Of a DNA stretch of 64,000 nt, positions 38,663 through 44,061 are shown one piece after another (positions within the stretch are counted from its first letter, which is position 1; the number at the start of each line of letters is the position of its first letter). The DNA comes from Octopus vulgaris (Eukaryota), in assembly GCA_951406725.2 (NCBI GenBank), contig OX597835.1, positions 30,194,001-30,258,000 of the forward strand. Direction: 5' to 3'. Position numbers and translations under genes: made by a program. The notes beneath the pieces are model-generated. The model searched no databases, had not been told where the DNA came from, and worked only from the letters and a program-made list of their open reading frames with translations.

Positions 38663-38755
38663 TAATTTGGTACGATCGTTTCGTACTACATCATTTTATT
38701 AAATGCTGTAAGTATTACAACATATTTAAGAAGCTGAGTACTCATCAGCCAATTA
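38663..38755 (-). ncRNA. Type-I hammerhead ribozyme motif in element fragment 38635-38880
   Basis: Minus strand: TAATTGG-CTGATGA-GTACT..AGTAC-GAAA-CGATC-GTA-CCAAATTA; stem III palindrome ACGATCGT. Confidence 0.82.
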
Positions 38756-41013: not shown

Positions 41014-41712
41014 TGCGTGGGGGATTACGCTGTTACTGTCGAGAAAACTTACTTTAGACTTCATAACCATTGACAGCCTCCTTCTTCCGGTCAAGTGGAG
41101 GTGGTCATGTGTTAATGGAGTCTGGGTTAGTGGGGGAAGGTAGCAGCTGCATTAGTGTTTTGTCGTGGTGTGGGCGCTAGTATTCGTAGAGGGTGGCTTC
41201 TAATAGCAATGGTGGTAATGGTAGTGATAATGGTGAGCTGGAACGCTTCCGTGGTTGGATAGTGTATATGGCTGTTTGTGCAGTGGACTCCTGTCGTTGT
41301 TCTTCGCAAAGGCGGTGGCAGTGATGGTCATGGTTAGGCTAGCGGTGGGCTTGATGGCGTAGGCAGTGGAGACAGAATAAATGGTGTGATTTGTGGTGGT
41401 CTTGAGACCAAGGTCATGTCCATTATTTTAGACCTTTGACCAATAGCATTCAAGCAATAACCAACTACTATATTTATTTCAATAATCAGGTGTAGTCTAT
41501 CTAGGGATGCATTTGCACACACGTTCATTTTTTCTACTATTTTCCCCTTCTCGTCAGACTTTCCTCTTTTTTTTCTTTAACGAAGAGCGATGATCGAAGC
41601 GTCATTTGAAGGTTAAAACAATTCGAAACGCATTGTGACCAGCGATGTGTAGCAAACATCTGATAGCCTGGTCAGTCACGGTGATCACGGTTATATATAT
41701 ATATATATATAG

Positions 41713-42473
41713 TAAGCAATTAAGGGTTTAGCAACGAATTGCCTTACCACACACCGAATTTAGAAATAGCAGTCAAAGAGATTATAGCTATTTCTTCTAC
41801 TAAAAGGGAGATCACAGTAAAGGCACAGCATTTGAAAGGCAAACACAAACAGGCAAGAAAGAATGAATTAACGGCAATCTATCATACAGTTTTAAGTCAC
41901 CTACGGACGTACGTTTCGAGATCAAGTCTTAGGAAAGCGTAAGAATTAGATAACTCTACTTTACCCAGACTTCTTCTTTCATCAGCGCAGGATACAAACA
42001 ATCATGAATGATTGAATATTGAATTTTGAGATACTAGAAGGCACCAACTCAACTCAGTATCAGAGCGAGCTAGAAGCCACAGCTAGTATCACCAAATTCA
42101 AAGTATGAATGAAAGCTTGTGTCACCAGTCCCTTCCCACCCGCGTGTAGCCAAGACAAAGTGCTGTGGTCATTTACTGGGATGAATATGGTTATGAGTAA
42201 ACAATGAAGGGTGAAATTAATTAATTTGGAATAATTATCAATTACACCAAGTAGTCTTCGGCATGTAAAAGCCTCATTCGAGGAAAATTTAAGTAATACT
42301 AAGCAATTAAGGGTTTAGCAACGAATTGCCTTACCACACACCGAATTTAGAAATAGCAGTCAAAGAGATTATAGCTATTTCTTCTACTAAAAGGGAGATC
42401 ACAGTAAAGGCACAGCATTTGAAAGGCAAACACAAACAGGCAAGAAAGAATGAATTAACGGCAATCTATCATA
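41713..42473 (-). mobile_element. Hammerhead-bearing 587-bp unit with 174-bp terminal direct repeat (pseudo-LTR-like) in (TA)n
   Basis: 41713-41886 matches 42300-42473 with no differences seen. Confidence 0.87.
41900..41991 (-). ncRNA. Type-I hammerhead ribozyme motif
   Basis: Minus strand: CCTGCG-CTGATGA-AAGAAGAAGTCT..AGACTTGATCTC-GAAA-CGTAC-GTC-CGTAGG; stem I 6 bp with one G-U, stem III palindrome ACGTACGT; first stem II pair is A-C. Confidence 0.8.
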
Positions 42474-42563
42474 TACACACATATATGTATATAAATACAT
42501 ATATATATATATATATATATATATGCATTTATATACATACATATATATGTATATATATATATG

Positions 42564-42628
<65 letters not shown>

Positions 42629-42725
42629 GTAATATAAATACATGTATAACTTTACACACAGATAGAAACGCACACATTCATATATATATATAAATATGCT
42701 CATATACATATATGTATATATATAT

Positions 42726-43313
42726 ATGGAGTGGCAGGTTAAGGTAGGGGTGGATTATAGTGCCTACAAAGTATAGCAATGTTAGAAACAAGATGGCCAA
42801 TTTGAGTTTTGCTTGCACACTTCTCACTCTTTCTTTCATGAAAAGGACAGAAGGAGAAAGAGGGTGGATGACAATATGATATCAAATAATGGGGGCCAAA
42901 TGAAAGATGAATAAGTTGTCGGAAGGAGAAGAGATGGATAGAATGAGAAGCGAAGAAAATTTGCAAGCAGTGGAGGGTGGAGTTGTTAAGATGGAGTGGC
43001 AGGTTAAGGTAGGGGTGGATTATATGTTTCCATTATTTGATATCATATTGTCATCCACCCTCTTTCTCCTTCTGTCCCTTTCTTGCTTTCTGTCTCTGTC
43101 TCTCTTTCTCTCTGTCTCTCTCTCTCTCTTTCTGTCTATCTCCCTCTCTGTTTCTCTTTCACGCTGTGTCGATTGGCCGTTCAGCTTCTCTCGACCTTAC
43201 ACTGCAACATCGATATTTACATGTACGTAGCGATATCGAATACAGCCATAGAGGTAGATTCATAGACGAATGCGGATAGACATGGAGAGACAGACAGACA
43301 GACAGACAGACAT

Positions 43314-43372
<59 letters not shown>

Positions 43373-44061
43373 CTTAGGTAGATATATATATATATGTATC
43401 TATATACGTATATATATATGTATATATACATATACGTGTATGTATGTATGTATGTATATAACTATGTGTATATAATGAATTTACAAATATACACTTTTCA
43501 TGAAAGAAAGAGTGAGAAGTGTGCAAGCAAAACTCAAATTGGCCATCTTGTTTCTAACATTGCTATACTTTGTAGGCACTATAATCCACCCCTACCTTAA
43601 CCTGCCACTCCATCTTAACAACTCCACCCTCCACTGCTTGCAAATTTTCTTCGCTTCTCATTCTATCCATCTCTTCTCCTTCCGACAACTTATTCATCTT
43701 TCATTTGGCCCCCATTATTTGATATCATATTGTCATCCACCCTCTTTCTCCTTCTGTCCCTTTCTTGCTTTCTGAGAGCCTGTGTCACTCTCTGACACCC
43801 TTTCATTGTCTCACTCTGTTTGTCTGTCTGTCTATCTCTGTCTCTGTCTCTCTTTCTCTCTGTCTCTCTCTCTCTCTTTCTGTCTATCTCCCTCTCTGTT
43901 TCTCTTTCACGCTGTGTCGATTGGCCGTTCAGCTTCTCTCGACCTTACACTGCAACATCGATATTTACATGTACGTAGCGATATCGAATACAGCCATAGA
44001 GGTAGATTCATAGACGAATGCGGATAGACATGGAGAGACAGACAGACAGACAGACAGACAT

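Follow-up and report, generated by a model that had tools for sequence, protein, structure and literature searches.

A young hammerhead retrozyme family of Octopus vulgaris whose insertion ends point to Penelope-type reverse transcription across the ribozyme site

The insertion at 41713..42473 (minus strand) of the window, the whole 64,000-nt stretch of Octopus vulgaris DNA analyzed here, is probably a young 5'-truncated copy made by Penelope-type reverse transcription from a fixed internal site, on an RNA that was unbroken across its ribozyme site whichever form that RNA took. The insertion is 761 nt long, or 1.3 units of a 587-nt non-coding unit, and belongs to subfamily SF1. Taken by itself, the copy in the window is unremarkable. 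The value of the 587-nt family lies in its end map, which offers countable footprints of the copying process: internal starts that come in pairs, one arm leading while the other trails, and passage through the ribozyme site.

Structure of the copy in the window

Unit positions are numbered u1-u587, counted downwards from window 42299, which places the predicted cut at u394/395. On this numbering the window copy reads u414-587 followed by u1-587. Its direct repeats lie on the minus strand at 42300..42473 (the 5' copy; second round, u414-587, 5'-truncated) and at 41713..41886 (the 3' copy, whose terminus is the putative priming site A at u587). The first-pass annotation had described these repeats as identical over 174 bp, and the match is indeed exact, with a period of 587 bp. 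The repeat does not occur by chance, since the unit recurs across the genome and its 24-nt core has 424 exact matches, in a search that misses one subfamily, compared with 0 for a control. The annotation also held that a single minus-strand hammerhead would cut between 41906 and 41905, on which motif and pairing agree. In the period upstream, the corresponding cut would be at 42493/42492, and the element's start at 42473 lies 19 nt inside it, as claimed.

A (TA)n target (41692..41711, no strand assigned) adjoins the 3' side of the element, and a TA-rich microsatellite (42474..42630, likewise without strand), which matches the first letters of the element over 3 nt, adjoins its 5' side. At the window copy no target-site duplication is readable. 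The longest stop-to-stop frame in the copy is under ~90 codons.

Predicted hammerhead and folding of the unit

The predicted type I hammerhead occupies 41900..41991 on the minus strand. The core CUGAUGA begins at 41985, GAAA begins at 41917 and GUC terminates at 41906. Stem I has 6 bp (5' strand 41991-41986, 3' strand 41905-41900), stem II is long (~60 nt; -18.7 kcal/mol when folded alone), and helix III consists of 2 bp and a palindromic tetraloop. Rfam returned no hammerhead match at the gathering score, nor at E up to 10, so the ribozyme call is based on motif and pairing and not on a covariance model. The core and the stems are present in all three subfamily consensuses. The GAAAC-side core is intact in 46 of 48 SF1 units, and U4C stands in the core of all 38 full SF2 units. 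In PMC3088659, U4C is reported to lower activity considerably in vitro and still to permit viroid infectivity. In 10.64898/2026.07.22.740005, only one of nine predicted hammerhead dimers of Xenopus was cleaved. The window copy carries one hammerhead only, so that release of a monomer from it is impossible; loci with more than one occur elsewhere in the family.

Folded as a circle, the monomer reaches -164 kcal/mol, compared with -124 ± 5 kcal/mol for shuffled sequences, and 64% of the circular fold is paired. The self-pairing of the monomer has z = -4.8, with none of 100 shuffles equally good. The GC content of the unit is 36-38%.

Family, subfamilies and relatives

The 587-nt family is young and has many hundred copies. 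In the 2.8-Gb genome of its own host, at least 124 matches have 84-100% identity to the unit (40 candidates scored of 1,835), and exact junction patterns give 188 + 526 = 714 insertion ends. Three subfamilies, with units of 586, 583 and 589 nt and 43-71 differences between them, can be told apart among 101 full units. Divergence within loci is 3.1 per kb for SF2, the least diverged subfamily, 5.5 for SF1 and 8.7 for SF3. Arrays range up to 6.3 units, arranged head-to-tail and without terminal LTR structure.

Several of the longest arrays are SF2 loci (L131-L150, which were chosen for length). Private variants, so called here on the basis of the 195-220 loci sampled from a larger family, follow period-3, period-2 and XXXY patterns in L131, L132, L134 and L135. 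These patterns are best explained by later DNA-level expansion. Higher-order repeats arise inside very young arrays. Array length is therefore no proof of rolling, and the long arrays were rejected as evidence for a rolling circle.

Two related families were also found. A sister family with a 561-nt unit (L301-L330, for example L329), traced via a diverged neighbor, has copies that are 98-100% identical, a short stem II and GUU at the predicted cut. An older relative (L231-L260) shows 86-91% identity among its copies and 77-84% to the 587-nt unit, and has the same two-armed structure with ends A and B described below; a first look returned 2,883 candidates. Over 220 loci of the 587-nt family, no A>G excess was found among fixed private variants (2 of 27, compared with 11 of 115 singletons; P = 1.0), and A-to-I edits fixed from the template were thus not seen.

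Fixed 3' ends and scattered 5' ends

Loci for the end map were chosen by their 3' junction, which introduces no bias at the 5' end. The selection was made on the A end, and B-only copies are consequently missing from the samples. Sample 1 holds 97 of the first 100 listed matches (of 188) together with 10 of 12 further contig-1 ends, in all 106 loci; sample 2 holds 75 of the first 76 listed matches (of 526), the one omitted being split between two regions. Both samples together cover 181 loci, in which 88 insertions have a single arm and 97 have two arms or a complex structure. The classification of arms was automatic, and the single-armed L106, L180, L185, L198 and L275 carry short extra pieces.

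Two fixed 3' ends recur, at each of which the element passes into (TA)n: site A, at u587, u3 or u10, and site B, at u93-115. Measured from the predicted cut, A lies ~195 nt and B ~300 nt downstream, a spacing of ~105 nt, and neither coincides with the 3' end of the ribozyme. The window copy has the A end, which is common to the 188 + 526 exact junction matches. Its internal copy of site A, at 42290..42302 on the minus strand (u585-10) as located by the 3' ends of sister copies, was read through. Putative priming site B, at 42185..42200 on the same strand and located by the second 3' end of sister copies, is unused in this single-armed copy. The 561-nt sister family has both ends at the same distances from the cut predicted for it, 197 nt and 295 nt downstream.

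The 5' ends of the 88 single-armed copies are scattered over the entire unit, and the distribution of arm lengths is single and continuous across the length of one unit. Seventeen of these copies are longer than one unit, with a maximum of 1,034 nt, which bears out the earlier proposal that the RNA was copied beyond one unit length. The strongest pile-up of 5' ends, 10 of the 88, lies at u498-501, ~105 nt from the predicted cut. It marks the 5' base of a predicted hairpin, u500-540, which occupies 41760..41800 and again 42347-42387 on the minus strand. The cut site was read through in 51 of 56 passages (44 of 47 first and 7 of 9 second passages); the template RNA was unbroken across the ribozyme site.

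Mapping 5' ends relative to the cut had been suggested as a check on a self-cleaved start. The map gives a small excess within 5 nt of the cut, with most ends scattered. At u390-400, one of three windows tested, 5 of the 88 ends fall, where the background hazard predicts 1.46 (P = 0.017; 4 vs 1.02 in sample 1 and 1 vs 0.44 in sample 2). They lie at u392, 395, 397, 398 and 399, the first of them upstream of the cut, and one copy (L112) begins exactly at the first base past it. When all 259 arms are counted, the cut-site window holds 9 ends vs 4.4 expected (P = 0.037). These ends may reflect a minor class of cleaved templates, or else a stall at stem I.

Proposed mechanism and form of the template

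Among 91 clean head-to-head loci, 84 join an A arm to a B arm, six join A to another place and one joins A to A. To account for these ends, we propose that the GIY-YIG/RT protein of a Penelope-like element would cut (TA)n, and that the two DNA ends so made would prime on a single RNA, one of them at B and the second at A, with the polymerase from B trailing that from A. The two cDNA ends could be joined by microhomology into a two-armed insertion, or a single arm may survive, as in the window copy, whose polymerase likely halted at an ordinary point after 1.3 units.

The template may have been an uncleaved or partly cleaved tandem transcript, a form that we favor slightly and only weakly over a monomer circle. 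Two of the nine second passages stop at the cut site, and no single-armed copy exceeds the maximum given above. Among 184 loci, private variants common to two copies number 12 in 10,312 sites for the same round, compared with 4 in 13,510 for different rounds; for this comparison of rounds and arms, loci that were duplicated, held two insertions or lacked a clean arm structure had been removed. Mosaic arrays (L026, L086) are present, the least diverged subfamily carries U4C in every full unit, and helix III is weak. Unprocessed RNA was the main substrate of a Penelope-like enzyme in vitro (PMC11167929).

The same enzyme and start sites could also serve a circular monomer, which double hammerhead cleavage followed by ligation would produce and which was then copied past one round, and we put this reading a little short of an even chance. 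The read-through of the cut site is consistent with it, as is the finding that divergence between rounds (5.3 per kb) equals that between arms (5.1 per kb; 22 paired loci). Arrays are mostly uniform for inherited variants, with 43 shared and 15 private fixed columns vs 11 shared-polymorphic columns in 15 arrays. The circular monomer folds far better than shuffled sequences, and no excess of core matches marks a large master array (100 of the 424 fall in the first 18% of the genome). Where arms differ by more than 300 nt, 4 of 21 loci stop within 20 nt in phase, compared with ~1.5 expected, which points the same way in numbers too few to use. Circles have been shown for coral, mussel and axolotl retrozymes (PMC7229834). 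Against a circle stand the preference of private variants for the same round, which arm-to-arm gene conversion could also cause, the mosaic arrays, the U4C core of the least diverged subfamily, the weak helix III, and the period-2, period-3 and XXXY patterns of long arrays, which point to DNA-level expansion. Contigs of four presumed-RNA runs cover the unit in 25-28 of 29 bins, and such contigs are blind to ends, strand and circles.

It is possible, if rather doubtful, that two Penelope RTs chase each other round one 587-nt ribozyme-made circle, each primed at its own site. Such a process would amount to rolling-circle twin target-primed reverse transcription, in which the long tail makes the order of the polymerases visible in the genome. 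It would also explain the inverted insertions with a one-sided tail of Penelope-like elements generally.

Two primers or fold-back in two-armed insertions

Comparison of the two arms of each insertion bears on how they were primed. In 35 of the 84 A+B loci neither arm contains the other, including nine whose B arm never reaches A, and in 29 the B arm contains the A arm. Arms stop ≤60 nt apart in 33 of the 84, compared with 16.7 by permutation. At these 33 loci the A arm extends further in 28, the B arm in two, and the arms are equal in three (sign test, P = 1e-6). The lead of the A arm in 28 of 30 fits a B-primed polymerase that trails an A-primed one on the same RNA. B arms piling up just past site A (5 of 84) are too few to use. 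Microhomology overlap is found at 46 of the 84 junctions. Over 58 loci, arms of the same locus differ at 199 of 12,688 sites (1.6%), compared with 8.3% to the median other locus; the sole exception is L181, in which the arms have different haplotypes.

Alternatively, the two-armed copies could stem from a single cDNA that folds back on itself or primes itself on an antisense template, as proposed in PMC3846280, a route that we judge unlikely. The arms stop within 10 nt of symmetric in 18 of the 91 loci vs 5.2 expected, private variants are common to both arms, and an A arm within a B arm, as in the 29 loci above, is the arrangement that folding back would give. However, the 35 loci without nesting, among them the nine B arms short of A, do not fit it, and the longer A arm at 28 of 30 junctions is the reverse of fold-back from B. 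Fold-back would in addition need biased central deletion of palindromes. It was rejected for most loci on account of the missing nesting and the leading A arm.

Origin of the 1.3-unit length and of the start near the cut

Priming of reverse transcription at A with an ordinary stop also has to be weighed against two other accounts of the window copy. An origin of the 1.3-mer at the DNA level, whether a longer array contracted or the inserted copy was locally duplicated, or an assembly error, is very unlikely. Several long arrays do show signs of unequal exchange. However, a sub-unit copy holds no repeat to seed a duplication, arm lengths are continuous across one unit, and the five differences of the window copy from the SF1 consensus all occur in other loci. 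A contraction by whole units leaves the phase at either end unchanged, so that reverse transcription would still be needed to explain why 5' phases are scattered.

The first-pass annotation had taken the 19-nt distance between the element's start and the cut as a sign that the template began at a self-cleaved end. By the end map this proximity is no more than chance, and the start of the window copy near the cut site is likely a coincidence. That the 5' end is the end of a self-cleaved linear RNA, trimmed by 19 nt at integration, is highly improbable and is rejected by the end map: in its favor are the excess at u390-400 and the exact start of L112, but the zone of the window copy's end, u401-420, holds 1 end vs 3.1 expected, passages over the cut were mostly read through, the cut-site class lies ≤5 nt from the cut and not 19, its excess is equally attributable to a stall at stem I, the hairpin hot spot is twice as strong, and the end of the window copy has TA microhomology, as do most ordinary ends.

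Candidate enzymes

An autonomous Penelope-like element was excluded as the identity of the unit, since the unit has no ORF. Three young Penelope-like families (L207, L339, L361 and relatives) have many open frames of 781-784 codons that encode RT and GIY-YIG domains (Pfam), with a CxxxxCxxC motif ahead of the nuclease. By the description in PMC8557442, these families appear Neptune-like. Each has two 3' ends, spaced ~39 nt, at which it runs into (TA)n, and near the end lie degenerate hammerhead cores. In L361 and L366, the ten letters before the outer 3' end match the letters before site B of the 587-nt unit, an observation made post hoc that possibly reflects a shared recognition motif.

The 3' regions of 29 GIY-YIG loci (candidates scored: 150 of 6,136) and of the Penelope-like loci among L331-L370 gave no above-shuffle alignment with the unit. 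Searches that started from GIY-YIG matches, from a Penelope protein and from two of the unit's diverged relatives returned Penelope-like families whose 3' regions are unrelated, as well as more non-coding relatives. RT/EN matches near four element loci were not joined to the unit where inspected (L189). Because no autonomous partner sharing the ends of the unit was found among the Penelope-like 3' regions compared, we infer the enzyme from the anatomy of the insertions. In vitro, as described in PMC11167929, a Penelope-like enzyme cuts and extends both strands, initiates at two internal RNA sites and acts independently of ribozyme cleavage.

Comparison with known systems

The 587-nt family is a metazoan non-LTR retrozyme, a known kind, and the first-pass reading of a retrozyme or non-autonomous Penelope-type element is upheld by the family, its ends and its (TA)n targets. 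Metazoan non-LTR retrozymes (PMC7229834, 10.64898/2026.07.22.740005) are likewise non-coding, low in GC (38% in the 587-nt unit) and self-paired, with one type I hammerhead per unit; they range from monomers to ~6-mers and occur in genomes that also hold Penelope-like elements. Helix III of two pairs and a tetraloop is shared with HHR_Amex2 of the axolotl. The 587-nt unit exceeds the 170-400 nt of the retrozymes in PMC7229834 and is within the range of 51-972 nt in 10.64898/2026.07.22.740005. In contrast to the retrozymes described in these papers, the present family has a stem II of ~60 nt and one U4C subfamily, and no homologous pLTR was found for it. Its two internal insertion ends are mapped here, which is not the case in the consulted portions of the two papers. 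Described animal retrozymes accumulate as RNA circles (PMC7229834), whereas the 587-nt family is known here from genome sequence. A plant-type LTR retrozyme, with a type III hammerhead in its LTRs and a 4-bp target-site duplication, was excluded by the type I topology and the lack of a readable duplication.

The family also resembles LINE-1 twin priming, where one RNA is primed from both ends of the target and an inverted arm results. The landing place of the second LINE-1 primer varies, always next to where the first cDNA stops, and the two arms have no overlap. The 587-nt family differs from this in that both sites are fixed and the arms overlap over hundreds of bases.

The Penelope-type anatomy seen in the 587-nt family comprises the partial tandem, the inverted arm, the one-sided tail and the microsatellite target. 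EN+ Penelope-like elements, as PMC8557442 and PMC3846280 describe them, share with it two alternative 3' ends, partial tandems, an inverted arm with a one-sided tail, microsatellite targets of (TA)n type and microhomology at the 5' junction. They differ by the presence of an ORF, and the tail between their ends is 30-40 nt long, compared with ~105 nt in the 587-nt family. Between the ends of the latter and the target there is short TA-like microhomology, whereas the internal start sites of Anolis Poseidon are described in PMC11167929 as lacking homology to the DNA that is cut.

The origin of tandem and inverted insertions of Penelope-like elements is described as undefined in PMC8557442, and the copying of animal retrozymes back into DNA appears as a proposal in PMC7229834 and 10.64898/2026.07.22.740005. 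No two-primer model for retrozyme or Penelope insertions was found in titles and the openings of abstracts, a search that covered few subscription papers. With the RNA, two start sites and three intact candidate enzymes named for reconstitution, the choice between a circle and a linear multimer is decidable.

Other features of the window

Two hammerhead-like motifs on the minus strand, at window 38748 and 31586, are unrelated to the 587-nt unit; the one at 38748 lies ~50 nt ahead of a (TA)n tract and resembles a Penelope-type end. Beside the element, window 42726-43700 contains inverted repeats that match perfectly over 120-121 nt, along with a direct repeat of 34 nt, and is a rearranged two-armed piece of another repeat.
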